Origin: Malacoraja senta
Taxonomy: Eukaryota
Reading direction: 5' to 3'
Assembly: GCA_038087875.1 (NCBI GenBank)
Contig: CM075990.1
Span: 5,954,001 to 6,018,000 of the forward strand
Length of the DNA: 64,000 bases
In this document: in pieces, positions 2,589 through 51,753 of the stretch
Position numbering within the stretch: the first letter of the stretch is position 1
How the letters are laid out: each line of letters starts with the position of its first letter
Made by a program: the position numbers and the translations under genes
Notes under the pieces: model-generated
Database searches by the model: none
What the model saw: only the letters and a program-made list of their open reading frames with translations
What the model was told of the DNA's origin: nothing

Positions 2589-2893
2589 TAGCCCTGTCCC
2601 ACGGTACGAGTTCATTCCAAGAGCTCTCCCGAGTTTAAAAAAAATCAAAAACTCGTGGTAAGCACGGAGAATGAACGTAGCGGGTACGTCGGAGCTCGGG
2701 GACGTCTCTTAGCGGCTCGTAACATTAACGGCAGGTAAGCATGGGAAGACTCGTGAAGATTTCTCAACATGTTGAAAAATGTCCACGAGAGCCCCGAGTA
2801 CCGACGAGTGGCCATGACCGTAAATCTCCGAGTTCGTATCAGGGCAAACTCGGGAGAGCTCTTGGAATGAACTCGTACCGTGGGACAGGGCTT
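2589..2893. mobile_element. Harbinger/PIF-type MITE
   Basis: 47-bp perfect terminal inverted repeats (agccctgtcccacggtacgag...), 3-bp TSD TGA, no ORF. Inserted in a Penelope-derived repeat. Confidence 0.85.
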
Positions 2894-3389
2894 TGAGGCA
2901 GCATCTATGGAGCGAAGGAATAGGCAACGTCTCGGGTCAAGACCATTCTTCAGACTTCTCGATCCGAAACATCACCTATTCCTTCATTCCATAGATGCTG
3001 CTTCACCCACTGAGTTTCTCCAGCTTTTTTGTCTACCTTTGATTTTTCCAGCATCTGCAGTTCTTTCTTAATCATCGATTGGAGTAATGTGTTCTGTTGT
3101 GTTTTAAGAAAATATTCATCTTTGGGATTTTAATATTGCTAGCAGGGTCAGCATTTATTGCCCATCCCTTAGAGTATTACCCTTGAGAAGGAGGCGAAGT
3201 ATGGCATTGTTGAACTGCAGCAGCCCGACTGGAAAAGGTACTACCATAGTGCAGTTAGGCCAAGAAACAATTGGATTTGGACCAAGTAAAAATGATGAGT
3301 CAGTGATATATTTCCATGGTAGGATTCAGTGCAACTGGAATGGTATCCTGCTGGTGATGCACTTGCTACCCTTCTCTTTCCAGGTGGGA

Positions 3390-7510: not shown

Positions 7511-9713
7511 CTGTCTTTCAAGTAGCCTGGATATATATGCAGTTAAATCCTGAATCTGTACCCCAATCTCAATTTAATCTCACTGCCTTCTACTCCACTA
7601 TTTACTTCCATCCCCAGCCAACTGTCAAGTAAATATTGATTCACCGACTGACATATTTGCCCCTCCGTGACACACTGGTCAACCTGAGGAGCACCTTCAG
7701 CAACAGACTGGTCCAACCAAGGTGCAGCACAGAATGTTGCATAAGATCCTTTTTCCCTGTGCCTATCAAACTGTACAACTGCTCCCCTTCTGTCGTGGGG
7801 TAGACTGACTCCCCCCTCCCCATCTTTGCACATCGCTCATCCTGGAGTTTTCCACTCGATTATTTAATTTCATTATTATTAGAATGCACATGGCATTTTT
7901 AATGCCTTGTATCTGTATCTTTTGACTGGCGGCAGACCAATTTCCCTCTGGGATAAATAAAGGTGTATCATATCGTATTGTATCATATTTGTTCAAGCTG
8001 ACTCTTGTCTACCCTGCTCCCTTACCCCCTCCAAAACCTTGCCATAGTTGTTGCTCTACATTGCCTTTGGAACAGATTGGCCACTGTGTTTAAAGTCTTC
8101 ATTTTTGTTCTCAAATTCCCCAATAGATTATACTTCTTATTTTCTCCAATGTTTTTAATTTCTCCTGCATTGACCCTACATGGGACCATCTCTGCCTCTT
8201 ACACACCCACTTTCCACATCAGCCCAACCATTGCCAGCTGTGTCATAAGTTGGTTCATCCTTACAATCTGGAATTTCCTTCCTAAATCTCTTGTACGTCA
8301 CTTCCCACAAACCACTTCTTTAACCAAACAATAATGTTGATGTCGAGCACATTGGGATATTTTGCAACTTAGAAATGCAATAAAAATATAGGCTGTTGTG
8401 GGTGACATCTTGGTATAAAAAGAATATTTCCAGCTTGCAAAGTACTTGTGAAAATAAATTGCAAGCAAAATTAGTATGAAGGAGCTGCAGATGCTGGTTT
8501 AAACTGAAGATAGACAACAACAAAAAGCTGGAGTAACTCAGCGGATCAGACAGCATCTCTGGAGAAAAGGAATTGGTGACGTTTCAGCTCTTAACCTGAA
8601 GAAGGGTCTCGACCTAAAACATCACCTACTTTTCTCCAGAAATGCTGTCTGACCAACAACATTATGAAAATGGGCCTCTTCTGCTTTGAGCTTTCTTCTG
8701 GGAAGCACAAATAAGAAGACATCGCATTTTCAGCAGCACTCCAGTTAAAATCGCTAACTGTGCCAGGTATGTATAAGTTTGCACGTGTATAAAGGTTTTA
8801 GGGATGTTTCACCTTCACCTTCAATCTGTTATCATTTTTACTGAGAAGGGAATAGGATATTTAAGATATTTTGAATTAATTTATTAAGTTGGTCACACAA
8901 TTCCATGAATCATGATAATTTAACCAGGAGTTCAAATTAAGGCAAATAAATTATTTGTGGTTAATGGGACATAGAAGGATGTGTTAGAATTTACTTTATC
9001 TTTCATCTCCTTGGGAAATGGAATTCCATTATCTCTTCTTTGGCTGAAGCCCATGGATTTTTTTTGTGCTAATATCTAATACTGGGAGAGATTTCAAGAC
9101 AGTAAATGTTCAAGGATATTAGAAGGCATGAAATACAAAAGTATATATTTTTTAAGTTTCCTTCCTCAATTGTAGTCTTGAAGTTAATATCGGGCACATA
9201 ATAATTATTTAATTTAGGTTGTGGCAATGAGTGGCAGCTTGATTACTGAATATTAGTTAATTTGCATTTAATTTCAACAACTTCTAAGCATATGACCTTA
9301 TCTGAAACGATTGCCAAGAGATATTTTCCCATTGTACACTGCAGAAATGTTTATAGTTAAGTGATGGCAGTGTATGTTTGCTTCCTCTGTTCACTTCCTC
9401 TGTCACTAAATAAAATATAAAAAAATAATAACTGGATTTTACCTTAATTTCGCCATTAAGCACTACCTCTCAATTTCAGTTAATTAGTACATGTTTTTTT
9501 GTCTATTACAATAAATGGCAGATCATTTTGACCTGTTGGTGACTCCACAAGGGATTCATCATAAGTACACAAGGATATTGTGAGGATCATAAAGCAGATG
9601 AAAGATACATTTTGTTTAAAGGTTCATCAGAACAAGGAGAGGTTTACCAAAAAAAAGTTATTAAAAAATCGCTCTCATATACTACTTTTCACAACCAAAG
9701 GACAAATTTATTA

Positions 9714-14789: not shown

Positions 14790-14989
14790 NNNNNNNNNNN
14801 NNNNNNNNNNNNNNNNNNNNNNNNNNNNNNNNNNNNNNNNNNNNNNNNNNNNNNNNNNNNNNNNNNNNNNNNNNNNNNNNNNNNNNNNNNNNNNNNNNNN
14901 NNNNNNNNNNNNNNNNNNNNNNNNNNNNNNNNNNNNNNNNNNNNNNNNNNNNNNNNNNNNNNNNNNNNNNNNNNNNNNNNNNNNNNNNN
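14790..14989. other. Assembly gap (200 N)
   Basis: Run of N in the sequence. Confidence 0.99.
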
Positions 14990-15796
14990 CTAGTCATGCC
15001 TACCCGCGTTTGGTCCATATTCCTCCAAACCTGTCCTATCCATGTTGGAGTAACTCAGCGGGACAGGCAGCATCTCCAGAGAGAAGGAATGGGTGACATT
15101 CCGGGTTGAGACCCTTCTTCAGACCAGAAATGTCACCCATTCCAGAGATGCTGCCTGTCCTGCTGAGTTACTCCAGCATTCTGTGTCTATCTTCATTGTA
15201 AACCAGCATCTGCAGTTCCTTCCTACACATGCTTGTCATGGTAAATGCTTGAATCATTGGATTTTTGAATAGAAATTTGGCAGATTGCAAGTAGCAGCAG
15301 AACCGGCAGTGTGGTGTTGTGAGCACTGAACAGTGGGATTAGTTTTGCATTCATCTGCCTAACATAGTCATAGTGGACTAAATGGCATATTACATAGTAA
15401 ACCTTACTGACTTTGGGGCATAAACTAGAAAATTGAATCTTTATTTCGACACCTTGATGCAGCCACCGTTTGAAAAGTGCTGCAGCCCCCTTTCATATAT
15501 TTTCATGTCCATAGGAAAAGTATCTAAGGATGCCGAACAAACCTGTGCCAGTTGAGTCATAGAGAATATCTAATCAAGCTCACTGTAACACCCACATACT
15601 CCCTAAGTTCATCAGACCATCGATTCATTTATTCGCTCTCCAATGGCCTTCAGTATTTGCTCCAAACACCTGCTGTGTAATTGGACTACGTGGTTTAACA
15701 TATCAGAGAGCATTAGCGTAACCACAGTTGGAATAAGAAGATTGTTGCCTCACAAAGAGTGACTTCAGTGCCAGGCAGGAAACCTCTCAGCAGATG

Positions 15797-18649: not shown

Positions 18650-18920
18650 CTGTATAGGAGAAGAAGACACAGTTCAGTATGAATATAGCTTTAACAACAT
18701 TATAAACATCCATTCTCAGTGTCATTGATGGATGTGCTGACGATTCTTAAAATTACTCACCGCATTACATCTGAGAAAGGCGCTAATCATCATTTCCACT
18801 TACAAAGTTTAGGTTTAAGACACCAGACACCAGAACACCAGCTGGCAGAGGAGGTAGTTGAGGCAGGGATTGTCCCAACGTTTAAGAAACAGTTAGAAAG
18901 GTACATGGATAGGACAGGTT

Positions 18921-20650
18921 CGGACACCAGAAGCATGTGGCAGAGTGTCAGGGACATCACCGACTATAAGAGCAGCCCCGCCTGCCCCCACGGTGATATC
19001 ACACTGGCCAACGAACTAAACACCTTCTTTGCCCGGTTCGAAACTGGCAACACCACCAGGGGTGGAATAACCCCGGCCATGGCGGAGGGACAGGCCTTAA
19101 CACTGAGCACCCAGGAGGTACAGTGCGCTCTGCGTAGGATAAATCCACGGAAGGCTGCAGGCCCGGATGGAGTCCAGGGAAGGGTACTAAAGGACTGTGC
19201 TGTACAGCTGGCAGAGGTATTCACGAGAATCTTCAATATGTCTCTATCTCTGGCAACGGCCCCCAAGTGCCTGAAAACAGCCACCATAGTGCCGGTGCCG
19301 AAAAAGTCCAAAGTCACCAACCTGAACGACTACCGCCCGGTTGCCCTAACTCCAATCCCAATGAAGTGCTTCGAAAGGCTGGTCCTCTCCCATATCAAAT
19401 CCAGCATCCCTGCCTCACTGGACTCCCATCAATTTGCATACAGGGCAAATAGATCAACAGAGGATGCCATCTCTCTGGCTCTTCACACTGTCCTGACTCA
19501 CCTGGACAGACAGGGCACGTATGTGAGGATGCTCTTCATTGACTATAGCTCTGCATTCAATACGGTCATCCCCACCAAGCTCACCACCAAACTCCACCAG
19601 CTAGGCCTCAGCTCGCTGATATGCGATTGGATCCTGAACTTTCTGACGGAGCGACCGCAGGCAGTGAGACTGGGCCCGCACCTGTCCTCCACTATCACCC
19701 TGAGCACCGGCACACCACAGGGCTGTGTACTAAGCCCCATGCTCTACTCCCTCTTCACTCACGACTGTGTCCCTGCATTCGACACCAACACCATCGTGAA
19801 GTTTGCAGACGACACAACAGTGATTGGGCTGATCACCAACGGTGATGAAACAAAATACAGAGTGGAGGTGCAGAACCTGGCGAACTGGTGCGCTCATAAC
19901 AACTTGTCACTAAACACCTCCAAGACCAAGGAGCTGATTAGTGACTTCAGGAGGTCCCATAATGGAGAATACGCCCCAATCTCCATTTACGGGGAAAGTG
20001 TGGAGAGAGTGTCCAGCTTTAAGTTTCTGGGCACTCACATTTCAGAGGACCTCACATGGTCCACCAACACCGCTGCGCTGGTCAAGAAGGCACAGCAATG
20101 ACTGTTCTTCCTGAGGACATTAAAAAAGACTGGTCTGCCCCAACAGCTGCTGACAACGTTCTACCGCTGCACCACAGAGAGCATATTAACGTATGGCATC
20201 TCTGTGTGGTATCTCAGCTGCACGGAGGCGGAGAGGAGAGCTCTTCAGCGCGTCGTCCACAGAGCGCAGAGGATCATTGGGACGGAGCTACCAGCCTTGG
20301 AGGGCATCTACCACACACGGTGCCTCAGGAAGGCCGTCAGCATCCATAAGGACTCATCACACCCTTGTAACGGACTGCTTGAACTACTTCCCTCCGGCAG
20401 ACGTTACAAGGCCTTCTACGCCCGAATCTCCAGACTCAGAAACAGCTTTATTCCAAGAGCTATAGCGGCTCTGAACCGGCCCTGCTGAGTGCCCCCCCAC
20501 CCATGCCCCCTGGACAGTCTCCCTCGGATGGTCACGTCACTCAGCTTGCTTATTTATTTATCTTACTTTTCTTGTACATCGGTGGAGCTGCATACTAAAT
20601 CTCGTTGCACTGACGTGCAATGACAATAAAAGATATTATTATTATTATTA
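18921..20650 (+). mobile_element. Rex1/Babar non-LTR retrotransposon, 5'-truncated, RT domain with a single nonsense mutation
   Basis: KAAGPDG, NDYRPVALT, LFIDYSSAFNT, GTPQGCVLSP and VKFADD. The frame is open to 20488 except for TGA at 20099 (AQQ*LFFLR, CGA>TGA). (ATT)n tail. Confidence 0.95.
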
Positions 20651-27700: not shown

Positions 27701-30054
27701 CATCGCCAGAGCCTCAGCACATGTGCCCTGTACTCCAGGAACAGCGCCCCCATGAGGTCTTAGACTTTCTTATCACTATAAATAAAATATATGTGAGTAC
27801 ACCCTACTGTGAGTGCTGGTGAGGTCACTTTTAACCTAACTATTGGGAGAGAAGCACAAGGGATCATTTGGAAGTAGGGTTGTCAACATTAAGGGACATG
27901 TTGTTGTGAATGAGATCACAATAAGCTTGGTCTAACTGAGGTTTTGGAGCGGCAGAGAATCTGTTGGGCAACACTGTCTCCTAAAATTGTGGAAACTATA
28001 TGACCTAAGTGAAAGAGGGAAGTAAAAAATGAAAATAAAATTTGTCAGTTACCAATTTCTGAAATCTGACTATTTTTTGGAAGAATTTCAGTTTATTACT
28101 ATTACATTCAAATGGTATCTAAATGCAACGTTTCAGCCATTCAATAAAAATATCAACATTTTTTTTTGAGTATTAGCTCTTCAATCCTTTTTCTCAGAAG
28201 ACAAACATTTCCTGTTCCCCTAATGTGTGGGAAGGAACCGCAGAATGCTGGTTTACACCAAAGATAGACACAAAATGCTGGAGTAACTCAGTGGGACAGG
28301 CAGCATCTCTGGAGAGAAGGAATGGGTGATGTTTCGGGGCGAAAGAATCTGAAACATCACCCATTCTTTTTCTCCAGAGATGACTTAAGTCCGGTGATCA
28401 GACACATTTCCTGCCTTAGATAAAACAATGTTGTATTCTGAGTGTCAAAGGCAATGGAGCAAGTATGAGGATCCATGCCTGACACAGGCTTGATGTTAAG
28501 GACCCAATCCTGATATTGGACCCAAGGATTCAGGCCTGACATCAGCTGGACCCTGAGGCCTAATCAGCAAAGGACGTTGGCTCTAGCTGGGATGAATATT
28601 GTCTGAACCCCAAGCACCTCAACCCTAGACTAATGGCAAATGGTTCAACCTATGGAGATACACACCGGAATTAAAGTAATCCAAACTGCGACGGTTGAAA
28701 TGATGATGGCTCCATTTACACATGCCCAGAGGCTAAACTCCAGGACAGTATCAACTGAAGCATGCAAGAGGATGAGCTTATGTTCAATGCAAACAAGACC
28801 AAAGTCCTTTATTGACCTGCCCCACTGCACCTCAAACGATAAAGATTCTCAATGAGAAAATGTAAACTGCGTCCCTTATCTCACGAGCCCACTCTCAGTA
28901 ATGTCAGATATTGATGATAACATTTACCATACCTTTAATGCACAAACGCAACCCTGGGTCAATTGAGGAGAATGTTTTTTTTAAGGTCAAGAACCCATAC
29001 CTGGCACACAACTTGTGGTCAAATGGGCAGCAGTGATCTCTGTGATCTCTGTCTTCATTTATCCCTCTGATTTCTGGACTACCTACTGCAAGTATCTCAA
29101 TGCACTAGAAAAAATACTATCAATGCTCTCTTGGTGGTGGGGTGGTGGAATTGTCCAGGTTGAAATCCTGCATCAGGACAAAGCGTAGAGAGAGAGAGAA
29201 GGCATATAGTGTAAAGAGAAAAGTAGTGAGATAATGGGTTCGGAAATCTGCCAACTTTGTGACAATTTTGTTAACCTTTTGTTAACCTTTCATAAGCTTA
29301 ACTTTTCATGCTATCAGACAAATGAAATCTTTCTCGCTCTGCTCTTGATCTTATTAGGAATTGGAATGAATGTTTCTCATTTCATGTGCTAACACCAAAT
29401 TCAACCTCCAACATGATGTCTGCAATCCCATAGAATATTTCAGAAACATTTCAGAAGTCATAAATTCAAAATATTTTTTTTTTTAAGTACACACAATGCA
29501 ATCATACAACGTTTTACAAATATTTGTTAACATCTAGGTACATATTGATCACAGAATTACAAAAGTGACATTTACCAGCTATTAGGAATAGAAAAATTGA
29601 ATTTTAATACAGTGTATAGAAAAAACACAAAGGAAAAACATACATTTGTAGTTGCTTTTCTGTGAACATTAATATATATCCTAAATTTCATTGTCGGGAA
29701 AAGTGGTATCCAATTTGTGAACATTAATGTTAATTTCCTAATGTCAAATTGTTTAATAAAAAAATAATTCTTTATGTCTCTTGTATTACACAAAATTTAT
29801 TGAGATTAGGAATGAATAAATCTTTTTTTATTTTGGGGATAATGACGATTATTATCAATTCAATGAAACTGATGGACATCAATTTTCTGGGCACCTGTAC
29901 AAATCAAATACAATCTATGACATTAATCTGAAATAGAATGCCCAATAAGCAAATGTATACTTTGCAATAAATGCAGATTGATTTACAATATTAATCATTG
30001 AAACGTTGGAAATATTTCCTTATTTCTGCTGTAATATTTATAACCTGAATGTCT

Positions 30055-33160: not shown

Positions 33161-34315
33161 CTGCAAAAGCGTTACACAATTTAAAAAAATCACATTAGAA
33201 GAAGCAATAAAGACTACATTTTGATAGCATTATTGTCCAGCATTTGTTGCAGGAGAAATTCAATCCTCTTAGAATATTATCACTCATTAACTTTGTTTAC
33301 ATTGTCAAGAGCTTTTAATTGTCATACGTACAATTAAATTCTTATTTGCAGCAGCTTAACAGGTCCATCAACATGATAATACACAAATAAATATATAATA
33401 ATTCAATAATAAAATTAATTAAAATAGTAATGCAAGGTAACCATAATAGCGCAACCAAAACACAGTTCATGGAAAATCATAATTGCTGAGGCGGTGGTTA
33501 GTATTGATCAGTATCAAGAGTCTGCTGGTTGCTAGGAAGAAGCTGTTTTTAAACCTGGTGGTCATGGTTATTTGTCTCCTGTACACCCTTCCTGTTGGTC
33601 ATAGTGAAACGAGAGCCTGGTGTGGGTCTGATGATATTGGCTGTCCTTTTGAAGCAGCGCCTCCTTTAGATCCCTTTGATGGTGAGGAGATCAGTACCTG
33701 TGATGCACTGGGCAATTCTTTCACTCCTGTAGCCTCATTCATTCCCGGGTGTTCGCATTACCGAACCAGGTCATGATGCAACCAACCGATGAGGAATTTG
33801 ATGATCCAATTACATTGGAATAAGCAGAGACCCTGTTGTCTAAGTTTGATAGGTTTGGATGGGACGATGGTGTTGAATGCCGCACTATAGTCGATGAACA
33901 ACAGCTTGGTGTATGTGTTCTACTGCCCAAGTGACAACACTGACAACAGGGTGAGCTCATAAAATGAATCTTAAACACAGTAAATCTTGGGCAGAGCACT
34001 CGTCGGGAATTCGCAAGTGTGGGAATTTGGTATTGAGAATGCTTATTGCCTTCAATACTTTCCTCCCTATACTTGTTCCAGGGAACTCTGAGTCAGGAAA
34101 TACAAAGTTACGGGGTGGGTTCAGAAATTACTACAAGCAGATTTGAAGTAAATCCCGAGTTAAAATTTGTACGTATGATTTTTATGGCATGAAAATATCA
34201 TTCAGTTGTCAGGTTTATATTGCATGCAATCAATGCAGTCTATTCAGTGTGTCTATACACACACCGCTTATTTTTTCTCATTTTTATATTGTTTACAGTG
34301 TACTATGTTTACATC

Positions 34316-34446
34316 AGTCTGAAGAAGGGTCCCGACCCGAAACGTCGCCCATTCTTTCTCTCCAGAGATGCTGCCTCACCTGCTAAATTACTCCAGCATT
34401 TTGTGTCCACCTTCGATTTAAACCAGCATCTGCAGTTCTTTCTTAC
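34316..34446 (+). ncRNA. Penelope-type 3'-end repeat with an intact minimal hammerhead ribozyme core (34319-34346)
   Basis: CTGAAGA-A-GGGT(CCCG)ACCC-GAAAC-GTC gives the CUGANGA box, helix II, GAAA box, palindromic ACGU helix III and GUC cleavage triplet. Helix I is weak by eye. Confidence 0.65.
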
Positions 34447-35309
34447 AATTGTTTACATATTCTGTTGTGCTGCTGCAAGTAAGAATTTCATTGTTCTATC
34501 TGGGACATCTGACAATAAAACACTCTTGACGACTATTCCTTCCATTGCATTAAGTCTAATGTGCATCCATGAAAATTAATTCAACAATTCAGAAATTTAA
34601 TTGTTGAAACAATGCAGATTTTCTCCAGTCCTTAAGTAAGTAATTCACTCAAGAATGCATTAACTCACAGCTACTAGATGCATAACACGCAAGGATAAAT
34701 TTATATATTTTTCTAAAATATTAAAATAAAAGCATAAGAGAAAACAAGCATAATTGACCAGAAATTCATTCCCAGTCAGTAGGGCTAATTTTGGTACATG
34801 GTATGGGTTGTACTATGCATTAGCACTAGCCACATTAGATAAGGTTATTTGCTGTCATGGATTATCTTATTACCCAAGAGAACAATTTTAAGTTGTTTCA
34901 ATTAAAGTAATTCACACTGCTCTACACATTTTAAATCCAACTACACATAATGCAACATCAATAAGATATAATACGTGAACAAAGCATAAAGCAGGATGAG
35001 TATCAGTACATGTAAGGACACAAAGTGCTGAGTAACACAGCGGGTCAGGCAGCATCTCTGGAGGACATGAATAGGTGACGTTTTCGGTGAGGACCTGAAA
35101 CATCACCTATCCTTGTTCTCCACAAATGCTGCCTGACTCACTGAGTTACTCCAGCGCTCTGCATCCTTTTGTGTAAACCAGCATCTGTAATTCCTTGTTT
35201 CTATATCAGTACATGTAATTCTGCTACATAATGAAAAGAAAATTGATTACAAAATGTGATTGAACAGTTTTTTAATTAGTTACAGATCTTAGATGAATGC
35301 TCATTTTAC

Positions 35310-35475: not shown

Positions 35476-37044
35476 CTGTAAATAAATACTGCTGATAGAA
35501 TCTTAGATTTCATACACAAGCAAATACTAGTGAAAATTAGCTTTATTTTGGAACAGTGCCAAAGACAATTAATTGCAGAGTATCCATCACACAGACCAGG
35601 CTCCCCACCATTGACCCAATCTACATTTCATGCTGCCTCATAAAAGGAGCCAACTTAATCAAACATCCACACAAAATGCTGGAGTTTCGGCTTGAGACCC
35701 TTCTTCAGGATCTCGATCCGAAACGTCATCTATTCCTTCTCTCCAGAGATGCTGCCTGTCCCGCTGAGTTACTCCAGCATTTTGTGTCTATCTTCGATGT
35801 AAATCAGCATCTGCAGTTCTTTCTTAAGTATAATCGAATACTTGTCCCACCCTGGTCAATCCTTCTTCTCCCTGCTCCCGTCAGGCAAATGATACAGAAA
35901 CTTAAAAGCATGCTCAACTAGACAGTCTTCTTTCCCTCTGTTATTGGACTCTGAACGACACTTCCATAAGCTAGGGTACTGTCCAACTAAACCCTACCCC
36001 ACTGCGGATATTGGACTTTGTCTATGGAACATGCACTGCAATCCTGAGAACTTTACTCTGCAAATTATATCTTTTCCTTTGCTCTACGTATTGTACTTGA
36101 GTTTGATTTGATTGCATTTATGTTTAGTATTATCTGATCTGTTTGGATAGCATGCAAACTAAGTATTTCAATGTACCTTGGTACACCTGACAAGAATAAA
36201 CCTCAACTAAATGATTGTTCTCTCAAATGTCCCAAAATTCATTGTGCTGTAAAGATAATTGAGATCAGTGGGGACGTGTAAGTAAGGCAAGATCGCTGTG
36301 GGAGTCCAACTTCTTAAGTGATTTGCCTTTTTAGCTAAAGCTTTTTATAATGCAGTGTTGGACCACATGGCAGATATTCCACTTGCCCCTTTAGATGTTT
36401 TGCAAGCTCCTGAACCTCCCTGTGAGTATTTTGATAGACTCATTCAAACCTTAAATGGCTGAGTTCGATCTTAAACCCCTGAATTTAATAGGGTAAGTTA
36501 CCTCCCCAAGGTGATCGATCCCGGATTATTTTATTCTCTGTTTATTAGTTGTTGCGACATGATTTACATCCCTGTGCCATAGTTTGGGCAATTAATTGAA
36601 TAATAAAAGTAAACTGAACAATGGGGCCTGAAAATGACCATGAATTTAATAACAGGTTTAATGTCATTAAGGGAAGGCAATCTTTTATCTCATACATGCC
36701 TTTACCTGATCTGTCTTATTTGTTTCTCTAGCAGTATGTTGAGTATTTGTGTATCAATGCCCTCTGAACACAACGATATTGGTAATGTATTACTTCTTTG
36801 TTAGTATTATTCACCATTAGAGCAAGTTATATAAAAAAGTATTCTAAACCACCAATAAATAGCATCAATCACATGATATTAAGGTAATACTTCTAACAAA
36901 ATTGTATGAGATTAAAGGATTTAGCTACAAAATGAAAGCAGTATAAAGGTTAACGCAGTTAGGGTTAATTGAAACTCCTGCTCCAGTGACAAGTTGAATG
37001 TTGTGTCCCCAGTTAATGATTCACAAAGGCCAAGATTTCCTCAC

Positions 37045-37126: not shown

Positions 37127-38644
37127 CTCAGAAGGAAAATAAAAATGGGGGTCAGGATGACAGTGATATCACCATGAGAGATAAGGATGATACTGGGAAT
37201 CGATTCTTGGCATGGTCTGCAACACAATTGGGAATTGCACCCAACCTCGTTGTATTGTGCCTCAAGAATGGTCGACCATCATTTGAGAAGTATGGGAAAG
37301 ACTGGAAGCCTTGTTTGTTACCGAAGTCAACCTGTGAAGGCATGCTGATAGAAGAGGGATAGCACGTACATGTGCACATGCCCATATAACAGCACGTGGC
37401 TGACGAGGGGCAAAAATGGACTAGAGATTACACTTACAAGATTTGGAATAAAGTATTTTTTAGCAATAGAGGTAATGAGGGAACAGGTACAGGACTATTG
37501 TGCAATAAGATAAACACAAAATGCTGGAGTAACTCAGCGGGACAGGCAGCATCTCTGGAGATAAGGAATGGGAGACATTTCAGGTCGAGACCCTTCTTTC
37601 CGAAACTTCACCCATTCCTTCTCTCTAGAGATGCTGCCTGTCCTGCTGAGTTACGGCAGCATTTTGTGTTTATCTTCAGTGTAAACCAGCATCTGCAGTT
37701 CCTTCCTGCACTAATGTGCAAAAGTCCCACTAGAGGTGACTGCAATTACAGTGATAAATTGACCATAATAATTTTAGATCTGGTTATTCATAATGGGAAA
37801 GATTGTTATTAAAGCAAAGAGTGAAAGTACTCAGCAGATTTGGCAGCATTTGTAAAAAGAGAATGAGAGTTAACATTTCAGGTTCATGAACTTTCATAAG
37901 AACTAGGAAAAGTTAGAAGTAATAAAAGTCATGTACATGAAACATTAACACCAAAACCACAGACAATGCCTAGCAATTTCCTACATTTTCTATTTGTATT
38001 TCATATATACTGCATGTGCATTAATTTATTTTATCCTTCTTCATTATTTAAATTATAAATTATGAAAAAAATGAATTATTTTTTTAACCTTTCTGTCTGA
38101 AAGGAATATAAAAGAATGGATCGACTCGGCTTTAATTCACTTGAATTTAGGATGAGAGGGCATCTTATTGAAACATATAACATTCTTAAGGGATTGGACA
38201 GGCTAGATGCATGAAAAATGTTGGGGAAAGTCCAGAACCAGAGGTCACAGTTTAAGAATAAGGGGTCGGCCATTTAGTACTGAGATGAGGAAAAAAAGAG
38301 TAGTGAATCTGTGGAATTCTCTGGCACAGAAGGCAGTGGAGGCCAATTCACTGGATGTTTTCTATAAAGAGATATAGCTCTTAGGGCGAATGGAATCAAG
38401 GGATATGGGGAGAAAACAGGAACAGGATTCTGATTTTGGATGATCAGGCTTGATCATATTGAATGGCAGTGCTGGCTCGAAGGGCTGAATGGCCTACTAC
38501 TGCTCCTATTTTCTATTTTTCTATGTTTCACCAGGGAAGAATTACGGGGGTGGGAAAATGAAGTGCATTTCCAGAGCTCACATTGGGTTTCTATGTTTCT
38601 ATAATATAAGTCAGATTTTGTTCCTTAAAAAAGTTTGGATTCAC

Positions 38645-41944: not shown

Positions 41945-42827
41945 CTGTGAAAAGAAAAGATTTGAAAAGGGCACATCCAATTTTTTAATTGTATTTACTG
42001 CTGCTGGGTTTGGAGATATGGGATGCAATTCTTTGGCCCAACGATGAGCAATAATGTCTCACATGTAAACATTGACATCAACATTTTTAACTCAAACTTT
42101 TAAATTCAAAATTAAATTGGACAAAGAAACTGACTGGGAAATTGGCATAATTCTATTTCAGTAGAAATAATTAGTAGAGGATCTCTCCATCAAAGGCTTC
42201 TGAATGACAATTTCAGGTGGTCATAAAAGTGGGATTTGGTCAAATTTGATATTTTTTCACTCACTCCCATAGAGATACTGGGCAAGATCATGTTGATGGC
42301 AAATCAGCAGTTCTGTAGAGAATAGATGGCTTCTCACTAAATCTATGACATTTTGTAGAACAAGGAACTGCAGGTGCTGGTTTACAAAAAAAACACAGTG
42401 CTGGAGTAATTCAGCAGGTCAGGCAGCATCTCTGGAGAACATGAATAGGTGATGTTTTTGGTCCGGACTTTCTTTCAGACTGATTGTGTGTGGGGAACAA
42501 AGCTAGAAGAGAGGAGGGACAGGACAAAGCCAATTAGCTAATAGGTGGATCTCAATAGGTAGATGGTAGACAAAGGCCAGAGATGAAAAGACAAAAGGTG
42601 GCAGACAAAAGGTTTGAAGAGTTGCAATTTGTGAAATTAGAGGAAACATAGAAAGATAGAAAATAGGTGCAGGAGGAGGTCATTCGGCCCTTCGAGCCAG
42701 CACCGCCATTCATTGTGATCATGGCTGATCGTCCCCAATCAATAACCCGTGCCTGCCTTCTCCCCATATCCCTTGATTACACCAGCCCTTAGAGCTCTAT
42801 CTAACTCTCTCTTAAATCCATCCAGTG

Positions 42828-43378
42828 CCGTGGATCAGGGGGCCATTCAAGAGGGGGGAGTTAGAAGAAATGCCGTGGTGATAGGGGATAGTATTATTCG
42901 GGGGGTAGATAAGGTTCTCTGCGGCCAGCAGAACATGTCCCGAAGGCTGTGTTGCCTACCCGGTGCTAGGGTTAAGGATATCTCTGCGATGCTGGAGAGA
43001 AATTTGCAGAGTGAGGGGGAGGATCCAGTGGTCGTGGTCCATGTGGGGACCAATGACATAGGAAGGACGAGGAAGGAGGATCTGCTGAACGAGTTTGAGC
43101 AGTTAGGGAATAAATTAAAAAGCAGAACCTCGAGGGTACTGATCTCCGGATTGCTACCTGAGCCACGGGCCAAATCGGCGAGGGTACGAAAAATTAAAAA
43201 GCTGAATGCGTGGCTCAAAGACTGGTGTGGGAAAAATGGGTTTGGTTTCTTGGGCCACTGGCACCAGTACTGGGACAGGGGTGATCTGTTCTGTAAGGAC
43301 GGACTTCACCTGAACGGTGCTGGGACTGGGGTCCTGGCAAATCATATAACTAGGGCAGTAGAGAGGTCTTTAAACTAA
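42828..43378 (+). CDS. CR1 ORF1 C-terminal SGNH/GDSL esterase domain (5'-truncated)
   Basis: Blocks VIGDS, LPGA, HVGTND and DGLHLN are all present. Confidence 0.9.
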
Positions 43379-43467
43379 GTAGCGGGGGGGAGGTATCAAG
43401 GGGGGTAATAACGGCAGGGGTAGAGGAAATAGAGCAGGGTATCAGTGGGGAAACGGAAAATCAAAAT

Positions 43468-46352
43468 GTGACAGGAGGATCCAGAATGTGTGAAGATAAA
43501 GCTCTAGATGTAAAAGGGGCAAAAACAGAAAGGAAGGGTAGTAAAAATCATCTGAAAGTGCTGTATCTAAATGCACGGAGTATTCGAAATAAGATAAATG
43601 AATTAACGGTGCAATTAAGTACATATAGTTATGATATCGTGGCCATTACGGAGACATGGCTGCAAGGGGATCAGGATTGGGAGTTAAATATAGAGGGGTA
43701 CTCGACAATTAGAAAAGATAGACAGGAAAGAAAGGGAGGAGGGGTGGCCCTTTTAATAAGGGAGGGAATAACGGCAATAGAGAGGAAGGATATTGCGTTG
43801 AAGGATCAGGATAGTGAAACAGCTTGGGTACAGATAGAGAATAACAAGGGGAAAAAAACACTAGTGGGTGTAATTTATAGACCTCCAAATAGCTGTGACG
43901 CTGTTAGTCAGAACATAAATCTGCAAATAGTTGACGCATGTAAAAAGGGAACTGCTGTAATCATGGGGGACTTCAATTTTCATATTAATTGGGCAAACCA
44001 AACTGGGCAGGGTAGACTAGAGGAAGAGTTTATAGAATGTATTAGAGACGGGTTCCTAGAACAGTATGTCACAGAACCGACAAGGAGGGAGGCAATCTTG
44101 GATCTGGTCCTGTGTAATGAAGCAGGATTAATTAAAAATGTCATAGTTAGGGACTCGTTGGGAACAAGTGACCACAATATGGTCGAATTCCATATTCAAA
44201 TAGAAGGGGAGCAGGTTGAAACTCAGGCTAGGGTACTTAGTCTAAATAAGGGGGATTATGAAGGTATGAGGACTGAGCTGATCAAAGTTGACTGGGATAG
44301 CAGACTCAAGAATAAGACGGTACATGAGCAGTGGTGTACGTTTAAGGATCTACTGTATAACCTTCAAGAAAAATTTATTCCTATGAAGAAAAAAAGGGGT
44401 AAGGGAAAGAACAGTCAGCCATGGCTCAGTAAAACTAGAAAGGATAGTATTCGGCTGAAGGCAAGGGCATATAAGGTAGCTAGAGATAGTGGGAGGGTAG
44501 AGGATTGGGAAGCATTTAAAGGTCAGCAAAAAATAACTAAGAGATTAATTAAGACGGGGAAAATAGACTATGAAAGGAATTTAGCGAACAACATAAAAAC
44601 TAATAGTAAGAGTTTTTATAGCTATATAAAAAGAAAAAGGGTGGCTAAGGTGAACGTTGGTCCATTGGAGGGTGAGACTGGAGAGTTGTTGGTGGGGAAC
44701 ATGGAAATGGCAAAGGCATTAAACGAGTATTTTGTATCAGTCTTCACCATAGAAGACACAAAAAATATTCCAACGCTGGATAAACAGGGGGCGGTAGGAA
44801 TGGAGGAGCTAAATACTATTAAGATCACCAAGGAGGTGGTATTAGGGAAATTAATGAGACTGAAGGAGGATAAATCCCCTGGGCTTGATGGATTACATCC
44901 AAGGGTCTTGAGGGAGATAGCGGTGGGGATTGTGGATGCATTGGTGATAATTTTCCAAAACTCCCTGGAGGCAGGAACGGTCCCAGTGGATTGGAAAATG
45001 GCCAATGTAACACCTATATTTAAAAAAGGAAGTAAACAGAAGGCGGGTAACTATATCTAACATCGGTGGTGGGTAAAATGTTAGAGACAATTATTAAAGA
45101 AACACTAACGGGGCACTTGGATAAACATGACTTCATCGGACAGAACCAGCATGGTTTTGTGAAGGGGAAGTCCTGTTTAACGAATCTGCTCGAATTCTTT
45201 GAGGAAGTAACAACCCGGGTGGATAAAGGGGAACCGGTGGATGTGGTATACTTGGACTTCCAAAAGGCTTTTGACAAGGTGCCACATAAGAGACTATTGC
45301 TAAAAATAAAAAATTATGGGATTGGGGGTAATATATTAGCATGGGTAGAGGATTGGCTAACAAATAGGAAGCAGAGAGTGGGGATAAATGGTTCATACTC
45401 GGGATGGCAACCGGTAACTAGCGGGGTTCCGCAAGGGTCGGTGCTGGGACCCCAGTTGTTCACAATTTATATAAATGATTTGGAGGAGGGAACCAAGTGT
45501 AATATATCAAAATTTGCGGACGATACAAAAATGGGAGGAAAAGTAGGGGATGAGGAGGATAGGAAGAGTCTGCAAAAGGATATAGATAAGCTAGGTGAGT
45601 GGGCAACAACTTGGCAGATGAAATTTAATACTAATAAATGTGAAGTCATTCACTTTGGGAAAAAAAATGATAGGGCAAGTTATTTTCTAAATGAGGTGGA
45701 GCTGCGTTGTAATGCAACGCAAAGGGATCTAGGGGTAGTAGTACATGAATCACTAAAAGTTAGTATGCAGGTGCAGCAAGCAATCAGGGAGGCCAATGGA
45801 ATTTTGGCCTTTATTGCTAGGGGGATTGAGTATAAAAACACGGAGGTCTTGCTGCAGCTGTACACAGTATTAGTGAGACCACATTTGGAATACTGTGTAC
45901 AGTTCTGGGGTCCATACTTAAGAAAGGATGTACTGGCCCTGGAGGCAGTGCAGCGAAGGTTTACAAGATTAATTCCTGCAATGAGGGGATTGACATATGA
46001 GGAAAGGTTAAGTAGGCTGGAACTCTACTCTTTGGAGTTTAGAAGAATGAGAGGCGATCTCATTGAAACATATAAGATCGTGAGGGGCCTTGATCGGGTG
46101 GATGCACCGAGGATGTTCCCAATGATCGGGGAAACTAGAACTAGGGGACATAGTTGTAGAATAAGAGGGGGCTCTTTTAAAACTGAGATGAGGAAGAACT
46201 TCTTCACCCAGAGGGTGGTTAATTTATGGAATTCACTGCCCCAGGGAGCAGTGGAAGCAGAAACATTAAATATATTTAAGTCTAAAATAGATGGTTTTTT
46301 AGCTGCCAAGGGGATAAGGGGCTACGGGGAGAGGGCAGGGATATGGACCTAG
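43468..46352 (+). pseudogene. CR1 ORF2 (APE endonuclease plus reverse transcriptase), one frameshift near 45055
   Basis: YLNARS, ITETWL, MGDFN and SDHN (APE); [16 protein letters not shown] and FADD (RT). GNY[RPVS]LTS carries a deletion of about 10 nt. Confidence 0.93.
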
Positions 46353-48000
46353 GTATGGTTAGTATAGTAAGACCTGAGTGATCTCCTGGACAAGTGTCGA
46401 TCGCCTGGATTGGGGTCGGAGAGGAATTTCCCGGATTTTTTTCCCGAATTGGACCTGGGTTTTTATCCGTTTTTTTGCCTCCCCCAGGAGATCACGCGGT
46501 TCTTGGGGTGGAGAGGGGTGATAGCGATATAAAGGGGAGGGTAGTGTCTTGTGTTCTGTGTCTTGTGTCTACTGTTTGTGGGTAAGGGTGTCTGTTTAGT
46601 GTTCAGCCATGAGCGAATGGCGGTGCGGGCTCGATGGGCCTGGTGGTCTACTCTCGCACCTACTTTCTATGTTTCTATGTTTCTATTTGGCCTCCGCTGC
46701 CCTCTGGGGCAGGAAATTCCACACATTCACAACTCTCTGGGTGAAAAAGTTTCTTCTCACCTCAGTCTTAAATGGCCTCCCCTTTATTCTAAGACTGTGG
46801 CCCCTGGTTCTGGACTCGCCCAACATTGGGAACATTTTTCCTGCATCTAGCCTCTCCAGTTCTTTTATAATTTTATATGTTTCTATAAGATAACCCCTCA
46901 TCCTTCTAAACTCCAGTGAATACAAGCCTAGTCTTTTTAATCTTTCCTCATATGACAGTCCGGCCATCCCAGGGATCAATCTCGTGAACCTACGCTGCAC
47001 TGCCTCAATCACAAGAATATCCTTCCTCAAATTAGGAGACCAAAACTGTACACAATACTCCAGATGTGGTCTTACCAGAGCCATATACAACTGCAGAAGA
47101 ACCTCTCTACTCCTGTACTGAAATGTTCTTGTTATGAAGGCCAACATTCCATTAGCTTTCTTCACTGCCTGCTGTACCTGCATGCCAACTTTCAGTGACC
47201 GGTGTACAAGGACACACAGGTCTCGCTGTACCTCCCCCTTACCTAACCTAACCCCATTGAGATAATAATCTGCCCCCCTGTTTTTGCCTCAAAATTTGGA
47301 TAACCTCACATTTATCTATATTATACTGCATCTGCCACGCATCTGCCCACTCACTCAACCTGTCCAAGTCACCCTGCAACCTCCTAACATCCTCTTCACA
47401 GTTCACACTGCTACCCAGCTTTGTGTCATCCACAAACTTGCTAGTGTTGCTCCTAATTCCCTCTTCCAAATCATTAATATATATGGTAAACAGTTGTGGC
47501 CCCAACACCGAGCCTTGCGGCACTCCACTCGCCACTGCCTGCCATTCTGAAAAGGACCCGTTCACTCCTACTCTTTGCTTCCTATCTACCAACCGATTTT
47601 GTCTGTCTGCCTGTTTTCCTGTCTGCCAACCAAACAAAAAACAGAGGAAGTAATGTAGGTGGAAGGAGATATTTCGGGTTGAGACCTTTCATCAGACTGA
47701 GAGTCAGGGAGGGGAACACTAGAGGTATGGGAAGGTACAGAACCAGGTTTTGTACATGCATGTTCTCCAGAGATGCTGCCTGTCCCACTGAGTTACTCCA
47801 GAAACTTGTGTCTTTTTGAGGGCATTCTGTAATGTGCTGAATGTCCTTAAATTCTAATTACCATTATTTTTTAAAATTAATGTGAGTGTGATTTTAAAAT
47901 AATTATTTGTTTTAACTTTTGTGAACTTTTATTTAGATATATTTTGGCTTTCTAAATGTTTCTGGTCTGTTGGAAGGTCACCAGGGCAGTCCATGGGTCG

Positions 48001-48364
48001 ACACAAATGGCTGGAATAACTCAGCATCTCTGAAGAGATTTTGTTTTGGTGACGTTTCGGGTCGAGACCCTTATTCAGACTGAGAGTCAGGGGAGAGGCA
48101 GACACGGAGATGGTAAGGTGTGAAAATGAGACATCAAAAGAGATGTGGATCAAGGAAAATGCCGAATAAATCATTGTTAGCTCGGAGAAGGTGACAACAA
48201 AGCAAACAGAGATAAAATGTAATCAGGGACAGTCAGACTGGTCGGAGAACTGGGCAGGGGAAGGGATGGAGAGAGAGGGAAAGCAAGGATTACTTGAAGT
48301 TAGAGAAGTCAAAATTCATACTGCTGGGATGTAAGCTGCCCAAGCGAAATATGAGGTGCTGTTC
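48001..48364 (-). mobile_element. 5'-truncated Penelope-like element: GIY-YIG ORF C-terminus, 3'UTR and hammerhead-bearing end
   Basis: Minus strand encodes EQHLIFRLGSLHPSSMNFDFSNFK*, followed by gtCTGAATAagggtctcgacccGAAACGTC. Confidence 0.85.
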
Positions 48365-50365
48365 ATAAGTTCAGAAAGTCATAAGGGATACGAGTAGGAT
48401 TAGGCCATTTGGCCCATCAAGGGTCCTCCGCCATTCAATCATGGCTGATCTATCTCTCCCATCTAACGCCATTCTCCTGCCTTCTCCCCATAATCTCTGA
48501 CACTTGTACTAATCAAGAATCTATATATCTCTACCTTAAAAAATATCCACTGACTTGGCCTCCACAGCCTACTGTGGCAAATTGCATTGGGGCAAATTCC
48601 TCCAATTTGCCCTGGGCTGTGGGTGTCCGTGGGTGTGACTTTAGCTTCTGCTTTCTGTGGTTAAGTCACTGGTTGAGGACTGCTCTATCTTGGGGAATGA
48701 TTGCAGCTGTAAACTCAGCAGATATTGGAGGCCGTGCAGCTGCAAAACCTCATGCGACGGTGAACAACCATGATTGGTGGGAGATGTACGTAAAGCATGA
48801 GTGCGAGTGAGACTGCGCACACAGAAATAATCCCGATACCTTGAGGTCCATCTGACTTAGTATTTCAGAAGCATTCCAAGGAAGATGTAATATTCAATTT
48901 GTATATAATATTGCAGAGAAATTTGCAGGTTTATGTTTATGCATGAAATAAATTGGAGAGATATCAGATAATGTTTTTAAAGGGATTTCACTAAATCATA
49001 TTAAATCTCTGCTGGTAACTTATGAATAATTTTAGAATCATTTCCATTCCATGCACACCCTTAGGCTCTTAGATAGTCCCTGCTAATAGACAAGTGAATT
49101 GGCAATTAAGCCCGTAACATTTTGGAAATAATATTTCCATCATTCACCGTATATCACTCATACGATAAAATCTTATCACTGGACGACAGACTTAGCTCAA
49201 ATATTCTGCTGTTCATTTTTTTTGCTATTTCATAGAACATATAACAGTACAGCACGAGATCAGGCCCTTCGGCCCATAATATCTGTGCTGAATATGATGT
49301 CAAGACCAACTTTTATTTGCTTTCCCTGCATATCCATAGCCTAGAGACGTGAAAAGACACAAAGTGCTGGATTAACTCAGCAGGACAGGCAGCATCTCTG
49401 GAGAATGTGGATAGGAGACATTTTTTAGTTCAGACCCATCTTTAGACTGATTTTGGGTTGGAGGGGGGGAAAGAGAAAAATCTGGAAGAGAGACACAAGT
49501 AGCTGGAGTAACTCAGCAGGACAGGCAGCATCTCTGGAGAGAAGAAATGGGTGACGTTTCAGAAGGGTCTCGACCCGAAACGTCACACATTCCTCTCTCC
49601 AGAGATGCTGCCTGCCTTGCTGAGTTACTCCAGCTTTTTGCGTCTATCTTCGGTTTAAACCAGCATCTGCAGTTCCGTCCCACGGAATCTGGAAGAGCGA
49701 ATCGGCAGGATATGACAAATTGAATGTCTGCTTTCTAAATGTTTCTGATCTTTTAGAAGGCCATCAGGGTAGTACATGGGTGGGAGCCCAGCTTCGGGAT
49801 TCTGTAGTTGTCACCTCTTGAAGACTGCTCTATCTTGGGAATCGATTGCAACAGTAAACACAGCAGATATTGTGACTACAAAGCCCGTAACATTTTGGAA
49901 ATACTTAGATCTCCATCGTTCATCGTATATTACTTTAACGGTAAAATCTTAGCACTGAACTACAGACTCAGCTCAAATATTCAACTATTCATTCTTTTTG
50001 CCATTTCATTGAACCTGTAAAAGTAAAGCACGAGAACAGGCCTTTCGGCCCATTATATCTGTGCTGAATATGATACCAAGAACAACTGTTATCTGCCTAC
50101 AAATAATCCATATTCCTCTATTCACTGCGTATCCATTGCCTATTCAAGAGATGTGTAGGAAGGAACTGCAGATGCTGGTTTAAACCAAAGATAGACACAA
50201 AAAGCCAGAGTAACTCAGCAGGTCAGACATCTCTGGAGAAAGAGACTCTTACCTGACGCTATCGTACCTGCCTCCACCTCCATCCACAGCAGCGCGTGAC
50301 ACGGACTCACCACCATCGGTGTATAAACTTGCCCCGCACATCTCCTTTAAACTTAGCCCCTAACT

Positions 50366-50548
50366 GGCCCCACAGCAGAAGCGTCCACTTCGCGGGGCTG
50401 GAAACTGGAGCTAATTCTGCTGCCACCATCATCCATTGCGACAAGCGATGGCTTCCACTGATTGTCGCCGGAAGCTTGCGTCCTTTTCAGGACGGGCGAT
50501 GACAGCGAGGCCAACATTTGTAGCAAGATGGACTCGAAAAGAAGAAGA
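50366..50548 (+). mobile_element. Short retroposed insert with a (GAA)n tail and an 11-bp TSD, family unknown
   Basis: agcccctaact at 50355-50365 and 50549-50559. CpG-rich body inside an old CR1 fragment. Confidence 0.7.
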
Positions 50549-51482
50549 AGCCCCTAACTTCTTAAAGTTATGCCCTCCAGTATTTGGATCTTCCGTCCCA
50601 GGAAAAAGGTTCTGACTGTCTACCCTGCACTTCATTTACAGTTAAACAAGGTGTCAGAGAGTAATTGTGGGATTGCATGTCCAAAAACAACTCCTCACTG
50701 GTGTAGGACCTCCCTCAATCTAGGAAGGGGACTCACTTTGAAGAAAGCGCAATATAATTGCAGACATTGAACTGGGGAGGTGCGAGGAAATTACAGAAGC
50801 AGAAGGCAGGATGCTCGGAGTTGGTCAATCTATGTTTACACGCTCCCAATCCGCGTAGGAATCTGTTATGTGTTTCACACTTTTTATGACATCTTTTACG
50901 TTTGAATATGTATTCATGTTCAGAATGATCTAAATGAACCCAAGTATAAACCAGCTTGATGAACCAAGATGAAACGCAATCCATCCGCACCAACCAATAT
51001 CCAACATTTCAAAACAATAACTAATTAGAGCAATCTTAACAAACTCCTTGGCCACATCTCATTCATTTCTCATGTCTCTCGTGGCTCAATGGACACAATA
51101 AGCTTTTGTCTGTTTATATTCTCTGATTTTTGATAGGTACAAGTTATAACACCAACAAAGATGTTGAAGCATTTGTGTATACCAGATTAAAAAACATTTG
51201 AAAAGATCTGTAATAGTGTAATGATTGAAAATGGAATGGGATAAGAGATATTCCTACAAATTGGGAGCCAAATCTAATAGGTTTTCCTCTGTGCAATAAG
51301 AAATAAAATTTGATGTGGTAGTGAAGAGGAATATTCTGAAATCATATGAAATTATTCTGAATATGATGATTTATGGCGACATAACTATTTCTGGATCAGT
51401 GCAGTAAAGAAGGGAAAGTGCTTTGTTCAACCATATCTGCATGGTGAAAGAAGGCAAATAATTGATTACTAGAAGGTCTTAC

Positions 51483-51753
51483 CATTGATATGTGTTACTC
51501 GTTGAGGGTGAGGATTATGCCTTGAGAAAAAGGAGTGGTGGCTCAGCATTCCAAAGCGCATGCTGCTGTTTGATTGTGGCCTCTCAGCACCAAGACTGAA
51601 GCGTAGCAGTGAATTAAGAGGCATCGAGCCTGATTTCCTTGTCACCATAGGCTCTTGCTTGCTTTTGAATGGATCAAGGACTGGTTGACCTAATTTCTCC
51701 ATGGTTTCCTTCACTGATGTCTTCCCAATGCTTTCAGAAGGATATAGAGCCAT
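51483..51753 (-). CDS. TBATA: TBATA (SPATIAL) first coding exon (MALYPSES...RFGMLSHHSFFSRHNPHPQRVTHIN)
   Basis: Contains the SPATIAL-family motif FGxLSHHSFFSRHxPHPQxVTHI. In-frame TAA 5 codons upstream of the ATG, acceptor-like tcttcttcag at 51776, donor G|gtaaga. Confidence 0.92.

Follow-up and report, generated by a model that had tools for sequence, protein, structure and literature searches.

A repeat of about 132 nt occurs at 31 loci in the stretch of skate DNA analysed here (64,000 nucleotides, hereafter the window), where it makes up 6% of the bases, and at 12 of these loci two copies lie head to head as a MITE-like hairpin. The unit is supported as the hammerhead-bearing end (pseudo-LTR) of a Penelope-like element (PLE) by the type of its ribozyme, its place behind an ORF end and the anatomy of its insertions. 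We lean towards reading the hairpins as whole PLE insertion products, formed at each insertion by twin target-primed reverse transcription on an uncut RNA.

Fold-backs and single arms in the window

A BLAST search with four window copies returned 30 merged intervals covering 3,828 of the 64,000 bases, which we resolved by hand into the 31 loci, comprising 12 fold-backs and 19 single arms, at a density of about one locus per 2 kb. Unit positions are numbered along the copy at 55532-55663 on the minus strand, with position 1 at 55663. Counts come from this window, together with contigs of four related organisms on 49300-59200. The setting is vertebrate DNA with many LINE fragments. Fragments with long frames lie at 42746-47690, 18695-20488, 59628-62081 and 855-1523, and we take them to include a CR1-like element with an inverted second copy at 45726-47222 and an L1-like frame of 817 aa. 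Ahead of the L1-like frame, at 59239-59522, long T and A runs face each other.

The focal fold-back at 35.0 kb is a hairpin of 188 nt flanked by an exact 15-bp target-site duplication (35001-35015, identical to 35204-35218). Its tailless arm (35016-35088, minus strand, subfamily B) covers unit positions ~92 to ~16-20 when aligned to the unit axis, and its tailed arm (35092-35203, plus strand) covers positions 19 to ~131, with the tail at ~35167-35203. The head-to-head junction between them (35089-35091; split alignment, register ± ~4 nt) falls within hammerhead stem II, upstream of the cut site. The tailed arm starts with the decayed 3′ half of the hammerhead, of which only a GAAAC-NUC remnant is left. 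Complementarity between the two arms is 81% over 59 nt, and none of 200 shuffles is as stable as the DNA fold, whose z score is -7.26. Arm alignment and fold thus confirm the focal hairpin, and the fold-backs described in the initial annotation are real.

Among the other fold-backs, the arms run from 98 to 7 and from 22 to ~131 at 37494-37721, from 93 to 24 and from 8 to 131 at 49479-49697 (a copy that directly adjoins an older one), and from 93 to 2-5 and from 19-22 to 129 at 54394-54600, with 3 nt of microhomology at the junction. The copy at 63611-63827 (subfamily C) has the most alike arms (97% complementary) and a perfect palindromic centre. At 52941-53091 the tailed arm is the tail alone (93-131), accompanied by an inverted arm from 98 to 15, and the arms barely overlap. 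Three fold-backs have one arm cut short: at 8474-8654 the tailed arm is on the left and the other is cut at position 65; at 15046-15227 the tailed arm is on the right and the other is cut at ~84; and at 28226-28382 the tailed arm is on the left, the other is cut at 55 and the junction depends on the alignment. A 200-base assembly gap (14790-14989) lies just left of the fold-back at 15.0 kb. The tailless arm at 35667-35827 has an internal deletion, and the old fold-back at 58313-58500 is joined at the hammerhead start; neither has a significant duplication.

The hairpins listed in the initial annotation proved to be fold-backs, with two corrections. The copy listed at 2557-3072 (2542-3085 with its duplication; tailless arm 92 to 1, tailed arm 15 to 130) is split by a separate inverted-repeat element, and measures ~210 nt once this unrelated ~303-bp insert with 47-nt perfect terminal inverted repeats is set aside. 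Those listed from 8477, 15045 and 58315 lack a clear duplication, none being found for the first two, in which one arm is also cut short. The inverted-repeat element belongs to a different family, present at 2590-2892, at 54800-55153 and from ~62288; its terminal inverted repeats reach 47 nt, and its duplications are 3 bp long (TGA, TTA). This family is probably a true MITE, which we assume to be Harbinger-like, and two of its three copies lie within Penelope stubs.

Target-site duplications and an empty site

All six direct repeats cited in the initial annotation are exact: 35001/35204 (15 bp), 49479/49686 (12 bp), 52941/53079 (13 bp), 53934/54064 (tgtttctgtgc, 11 bp), 54394/54587 (14 bp) and 63611/63812 (16 bp). 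Three further exact duplications were found at 55518/55900 (13 bp), 57654/57701 (13 bp) and 34306/34450 (9 bp), and two old ones at 37494/37710 (12 bp, 1 mismatch) and 2542/3072 (14 bp, 2 mismatches). The lengths seen are therefore 9, 11, 12, 13, 14, 15 and 16 bp. In an anchored search over 27 element loci, with 400 random intervals as control, a score of at least 8 was reached at 11 of 27 loci versus 2 of 400 intervals, and a score of at least 11 at 8 of 27 versus 0 of 400; this search gave no convincing duplication at 16 of the 27 loci.

A single duplication surrounds both arms in 7 of the 12 fold-backs, and none was seen at a centre. Single arms carry duplications too, among them the tailed arm at 53934-54074 (minus strand, positions 12-132) and the shortest stub at 57654-57713 (minus strand, positions ~68-96). 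For the 34.3-kb copy, an empty site is provided by a paralogue of the host repeat at 52756-52881, which is 87% alike over 126 nt, has the 9-bp target once and lacks the insert; it was the only such case within the window among 12 sites tried. Duplications of 9-16 bp and varying centres uphold the earlier proposal of target-primed insertion rather than cut-and-paste.

Arm ends, junctions and subfamilies

Orientation was head to head in 12 of 12 fold-backs. Outer ends fall into two classes, at ~91-99 (up to 106 in single arms) and at ~126-133, and the ~39 nt between them are the tail. In all eight fold-backs whose two ends are intact, a tailed arm faces a tailless one, and none has two tailed or two tailless arms (p = 0.004 if sites are chosen independently), and the old 58.3-kb copy is probably of the same make. 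Single arms use both classes, with about 7 tailed and 9 tailless. This fixed pairing was overlooked in the initial annotation, as was the published Penelope signature.

Of 24 fold-back arms, 23 have their inner end at unit positions 0-24; the remaining one is the tailed arm of the 52.9-kb copy, whose cDNA ends exactly at the inner start site. Seven single arms begin at positions 0-4 with unrelated flank, as does, probably, an eighth at 58.0 kb. None of 43 arms starts at 31-33, the cut site, the nearest being an uncertain start at 35-44, and the cut site is present, together with upstream core bases, in 23 of 24 fold-back arms. The centres, previously placed at or near the hammerhead, do lie inside it and within ~30 nt of the cut, but upstream of the cut site rather than at it. 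Arm lengths and centres vary as had been described, with at least nine kinds of junction in the 12 fold-backs, formed with 0-3 nt of microhomology (most with 0-1 nt) or a few filler bases. One junction, with 2-3 nt of microhomology, is common to the 15.1- and 54.4-kb copies.

The tailless arm reaches further 5′ in seven clear cases and the tailed arm in one (49.5 kb), while three copies, including those at 35.0 and 58.3 kb, are near-symmetric and one is alignment-dependent. The asymmetry is not significant (7 versus 1, p = 0.07; counted as 8 versus 2, p = 0.11) and is suggestive only, hairpin tips being prone to later deletion.

The fold-backs fall into three or four subfamilies. In each of 10 aligned arm pairs, shared variants point to one subfamily per copy, a signal that is clear for the 8.5-kb pair and for all four pairs from the rarer subfamilies B and C. 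Divergence between the arms of a copy is about that between contemporaneous copies of the same subfamily, and the partner arm is the mutual nearest neighbour in only 2 of 10 pairs, so that one and two template RNAs are indistinguishable on this measure. A two-base arm mismatch in the 2.9-kb copy, considered as a sign of two templates, is explained by CpG decay.

The unit and its link to Penelope

Unit positions 4-31 form a minimal hammerhead, with the core box, one extra base, a stem II of 4-5 bp and GAAAC-GUC, and a predicted cut after position 31. Most copies are decayed, and only one in the window passes the full minimal-hammerhead descriptor: the single full unit at 34306-34458 (plus strand, positions 0-133, core from 34319), in which the CUGANGA and GAAA core, the extra base after position 9, G10.1-C11.1 and the palindromic stem III are all present. 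Across 31 arms, the hammerhead stems pair in 82% of cells versus 20-53% when slid, and covariation in these arms did not exceed that in shuffles. Rfam listed no hammerhead family, the fold-backs giving only sub-threshold matches of microRNA type, and the monomer RNA folds no better than shuffles (z -0.4 to -1.2). Elsewhere, the Rfam CPEB3 model matched an HDV-like ribozyme at 50355-50421 (plus strand; 35.6 bits, gathering score 35). The bin that holds it is deeply covered in the relatives, and this ribozyme probably marks another retroelement's 5′ end.

At 48.0-48.4 and 55.5-55.9 kb the end of an ORF is followed by a UTR and then by the hammerhead. Five single arms extend upstream into pyrimidine-rich sequence, in which only two pairs align significantly, and two of these arms reach a stop codon preceded by related peptides (P0001; 55854-55886). 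The ORF remnants thus come from two copies. The longer truncated copy at 48000-48370 (minus strand) holds the last 26 codons (P0001, 48293-48370), the stop codon, the pyrimidine-rich 3′ UTR and a unit with a tailless end, and the 5′-truncated copy at 55518-55912 (minus strand) holds the last ~11 codons, the 3′ UTR and a full tailed unit within its exact 13-bp duplication. From its E...N spacing and its ending, the 26-codon ORF end is a candidate C-terminus for a GIY-YIG endonuclease of PLE type. PMC8557442 names conserved E and N residues for that endonuclease. The 26-aa peptide had no match in Pfam or the PDB, and five short peptide terms were absent from a supplement of PMC8557442. Reading the 31 window frames of at least 120 aa by eye, we recognised no autonomous PLE ORF, and motif scans of metagenome, viral and prokaryote contigs gave 0 loci. 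The Penelope-end identity given in the initial annotation is nevertheless supported by a hammerhead behind the 3′ UTR of an ORF, the inverted arm, the one-sided tail and the variable duplication.

Several copies keep one frame open across unit positions 1-132, and in the copy at 47.67 kb an in-frame ATG lies within the hammerhead core. We rejected the 44-codon open frame of the unit as an ORF start: nearly all of its 27 matches were short conceptual translations of this repeat in other assemblies, no match contained a reverse-transcriptase or endonuclease domain, and a search with part of one match returned nothing. A tRNA-derived SINE was likewise rejected; ARAGORN, which misses decayed heads, found 0 genes in the window, and the unit has no A-tail. 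Just before the hammerhead (55664-55680 and 48082-48100, both minus strand), the UTR resembles a branch point with a CAG acceptor after it, in the place of the intron end in Drosophila virilis Penelope.

Contigs of related organisms

Four runs supplied 689,000-753,000 contigs each over the 9.9-kb stretch 49300-59200, other repeats included, and these contigs differ from the window by about 3-5%. Summed depth was hundreds of thousands to millions in unit bins versus 20-116 in unique bins, figures that do not represent a copy number. Eighteen of the 24 loose ends listed map to unit positions 0-2 or to the tail end, and their flanks show low agreement, which indicates that both boundaries are general. 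The best supported of those listed at these places have 1,071-2,203 records each and heterogeneous flanks, and the peak at position 0 includes copies with another UTR variant. No loose end at the cut site was among the 24 listed, with 17,656 further ones recorded.

Among the joints listed, some are fold-back junctions where the hammerhead begins, others connect units head to tail, and others again link a tail end with an inverted tailless end. Each run has 25-41 contigs with joints between positions ~1-3 and ~8, and 22-42 with head-to-tail unit joints. Of the joints at 50151-50152, 54406 and 55662-55664, two kinds are present in all four runs: whole units in head-to-tail order (tail end to 0-2), and a tail end directly joined to an inverted tailless end. 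Such recurrent joints are possibly template jumps or insertions of the element into its own ends. None of the 15 joints listed (25,480 further) represents an empty site. Contigs bridge the 57.66-kb stub in two runs and the 58.0-kb junction in two runs. The other insertions are suggested to be present in the relatives as well, by contigs that reach only 17-29 nt into the element, under the 31-nt rule.

Twin priming on an uncut RNA

In the mechanism that we favour, a PLE endonuclease, whose action the observed duplications would reflect, nicks both target strands 9-16 bp apart. The template RNA would have its 5′ end at the first hammerhead base, where arm ends pile up and where transcription may start; we assume that the boundary TCAGTCT fits the initiator consensus. 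One nick would prime from the outer of two start sites (~126-133) and the second nick from the inner of them (~91-99), the tail being the stretch between. Both cDNAs would then run toward the RNA 5′ end, through the uncut ribozyme site, and be end-joined with 0-3 nt of microhomology into a head-to-head fold-back, and cDNA from one nick only would give a single arm. In the simplest version there is one RNA, on which the inner-primed cDNA would lead and the outer-primed cDNA would displace it and usually stop earlier.

We infer every enzymatic step of this model. It predicts that the arms stand head to head, that a fold-back has one tail and one duplication, that centres vary and lie upstream of the cut, and that single arms of both classes occur. 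All of this is seen, and a single RNA with a leading inner cDNA would yield the observed asymmetry and the 52.9-kb copy. The earlier suggestion that the hairpin forms at each insertion by a second, inverted priming is to this extent supported. A lizard PLE studied in vitro cuts and extends both target strands, starts reverse transcription at two internal sites that delimit the tail, and inserts normally with hammerhead mutants, so that cutting is not required (PMC11167929). The one-tailed, one-tailless rule is seen here, and the two start sites have been shown in vitro only for that other PLE. Counting against twin priming are the sample of 12 fold-backs from one window, the three near-symmetric copies, which snap-back would predict, the 49.5-kb copy with its opposite asymmetry, the junction shared by the 15.1- and 54.4-kb copies, and the junction type that recurs in contigs of the relatives.

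The fixed 5′ boundary could be a transcription start or could relate to a splice acceptor, which in Drosophila virilis maps at hammerhead helix I (PMC4209133, PMC2377424). Among eight window copies there was no shared upstream exon of the kind expected of a spliced template. An extra G before position 1, as from cap copying, is present in several window copies, and the loose-end consensus agrees with it in one of the three runs listed there.

More tentatively, the stubs may be the default PLE product. With reverse transcription starting ~95 and ~132 nt behind the RNA 5′ end, any transcript that begins at the hammerhead would give a SINE-sized insert without a non-autonomous master, and leader-follower twin priming on one uncut RNA would supply the inverted end. 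If so, the inverted pseudo-LTR, the one-sided tail and the long duplication would be explained in one step.

Other routes to the same structure

A possible route, to which we give distinctly less weight than to twin priming, is snap-back or self-priming, in which a cDNA (or an antisense RNA, PMC3846280) folds at the hammerhead stems and copies itself, and an endonuclease resolves the product and leaves the tail on one side (PMC8557442). Published proposals of this kind (PMC3846280, PMC8557442) account for same-subfamily arms and head-to-head order, and the perfect palindromic centre at 63.6 kb, the near-symmetric 35.0- and 58.3-kb copies and the 2-3 nt of microhomology at the 15.1- and 54.4-kb junctions agree with them. 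Snap-back from a tailed cDNA, however, needs the tailed arm to reach furthest 5′, the opposite of what is found in seven clear copies; it could produce the 52.9-kb copy only via later deletion, and most junctions have only 0-1 nt of microhomology. The antisense-RNA version is compatible with the arm asymmetry and needs no later deletions. It is unlikely that ready-made fold-backs at master loci are copied whole, as a non-autonomous retroelement using PLE proteins. Such masters would fit the very high copy number, the junction shared by 2 of 12 copies and the recurrence in the four relatives of joints between positions ~1-3 and ~8, in 25-41 contigs of each run, and of tail ends joined to inverted tailless ends. 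Yet at least nine junctions and three or four subfamilies occur among the 12 copies, single arms are as common as fold-backs, the shared junction lies on microhomology and could recur, and a fold-back RNA has only one end in the sense needed for priming.

We regard as very improbable the remainder of the earlier proposal, in which the second, inverted priming takes place on a hammerhead-cut RNA. The minimal hammerhead and the centres within ~30 nt of its cut site speak for it, but arms copied from a cut template should start at position 32. Not one of the 43 starts at 31-33, nearly all pass an intact cut site and, in fold-backs, 23 of 24 contain it with upstream core; no cut-site peak appears among the 24 loose ends listed for the relatives (17,656 further), and cutting is dispensable in the in vitro PLE system (PMC11167929). 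The cut-RNA version is largely refuted in this window. Just as improbable are two successive insertions, the second copy landing inverted at the end of the first. PLEs do tend to insert into or beside earlier copies (PMC6765202), the relatives have tandem and tail-to-tail joints, and the 49.5-kb fold-back adjoins an older copy; against this, one duplication encloses both arms with none at the centre, the arms are of one subfamily, and orientation and tail pairing are invariant. Least credible of all is a true MITE moved by a cut-and-paste transposase, for all the small size, hairpin shape and high copy number of the stubs. The ends differ by the tail and so lack matching terminal repeats, the internal structure is not uniform, single arms carry duplications as well, and some copies run into the 3′ UTR and ORF end. 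The initial annotation had named fixed-length duplications and identical centres as marks of a true MITE; neither is seen. A classical one is excluded by duplications that vary from 9 to 16 bp and by the nine or more centres observed.

Implications

PMC8557442 describes the formation of inverted and tandem PLE ends as unresolved, and PMC11167929 does not settle it. Whole insertion products of less than 250 bp at about one locus per 2 kb constitute a very large natural sample of junctions, and genome-wide junction counts could separate twin priming from snap-back without new experiments. Skates and rays are reported to carry a 2-3% excess of 'Tc1/mariner' (PMC12361510); if RepeatMasker-style pipelines file these hairpins as DNA transposons, part of that excess might be stubs. 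For annotators, MITE-shaped hairpins in such genomes can be retroelement debris.

Comparison with known systems

In LINE-1 twin priming, the second nick in the target gives rise to an inverted cDNA, which becomes joined to the first through microhomology, with a single target duplication around both. The skate stubs likewise hold an inverted second cDNA in one duplication, and the 52.9-kb copy comes near to the non-overlapping LINE-1 form. Unlike LINE-1 products, they have no poly(A) tail, their second priming site is fixed, and their arms usually cover the same 70-90 nt twice.

An inverted pseudo-LTR, a one-sided tail and a variable duplication are textbook PLE features (PMC8557442, PMC3846280, PMC8969392), the tail being 30-40 nt in endonuclease-positive PLE insertions (PMC3846280, PMC8557442). 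Pen2a, Pen2 and Pen3a of Adineta vaga (PMC3846280; also PMC8557442, and Drosophila virilis in PMC2377424) share with the skate stubs a head-to-head inverted, 5′-truncated copy, a 30-40-nt tail on one end, palindromes at the junction and a hammerhead in the pseudo-LTR. Their duplications measure 8-10 bp, and those of the skate stubs are longer, at 9-16 bp. The skate stubs differ further in that only the terminal ~95-132 nt are inserted, which gives them their MITE-like look, and in their abundance of 31 loci in 64 kb. The inverted stub structure is therefore already known, and the family may already be catalogued. The literature searched, with subscription papers, Repbase and Dfam outside the search, yielded neither a description of this stub family from cartilaginous fish nor a paper that applies twin priming to PLEs.

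Poseidon of Anolis carolinensis (PAc) resembles the present case in vitro in its two internal start sites delimiting the tail, which lie ~100-130 nt behind the hammerhead, in the cutting and extension of both strands, and in its uncut RNA substrate (PMC11167929). The available portion of that account describes neither inverted products nor their joining. The PAc ORF starts in the hammerhead (PMC11167929), whereas most skate copies have no start codon there. With minimal type I PLE hammerheads (PMC4209133), the skate unit shares the CUGANGA core, the extra base between 9 and 10.1, G10.1-C11.1, the palindromic 15.2-16.2 and the lack of a loop III; it differs in a helix II of 4-5 bp and a helix I of only 2 bp, most copies are decayed, and its activity is predicted from sequence. 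Opposite-strand hammerhead pairs 100-700 bp apart were noted in 2014 (PMC4209133).

Very short de novo PLE insertions, with a median of 128 bp, are known from Chlamydomonas (PMC9977147). Animal non-LTR retrozymes (bioRxiv 10.64898/2026.07.22.740005; PMC7229834) are, like the skate units, non-coding and hammerhead-bearing, derive from PLE pseudo-LTRs and include many monomers. Retrozymes are head-to-tail tandems with a ribozyme per unit; no head-to-tail tandem with intact hammerheads was found among the 31 window loci, which are instead monomers and head-to-head fold-backs whose ends lie off the ribozyme cuts.
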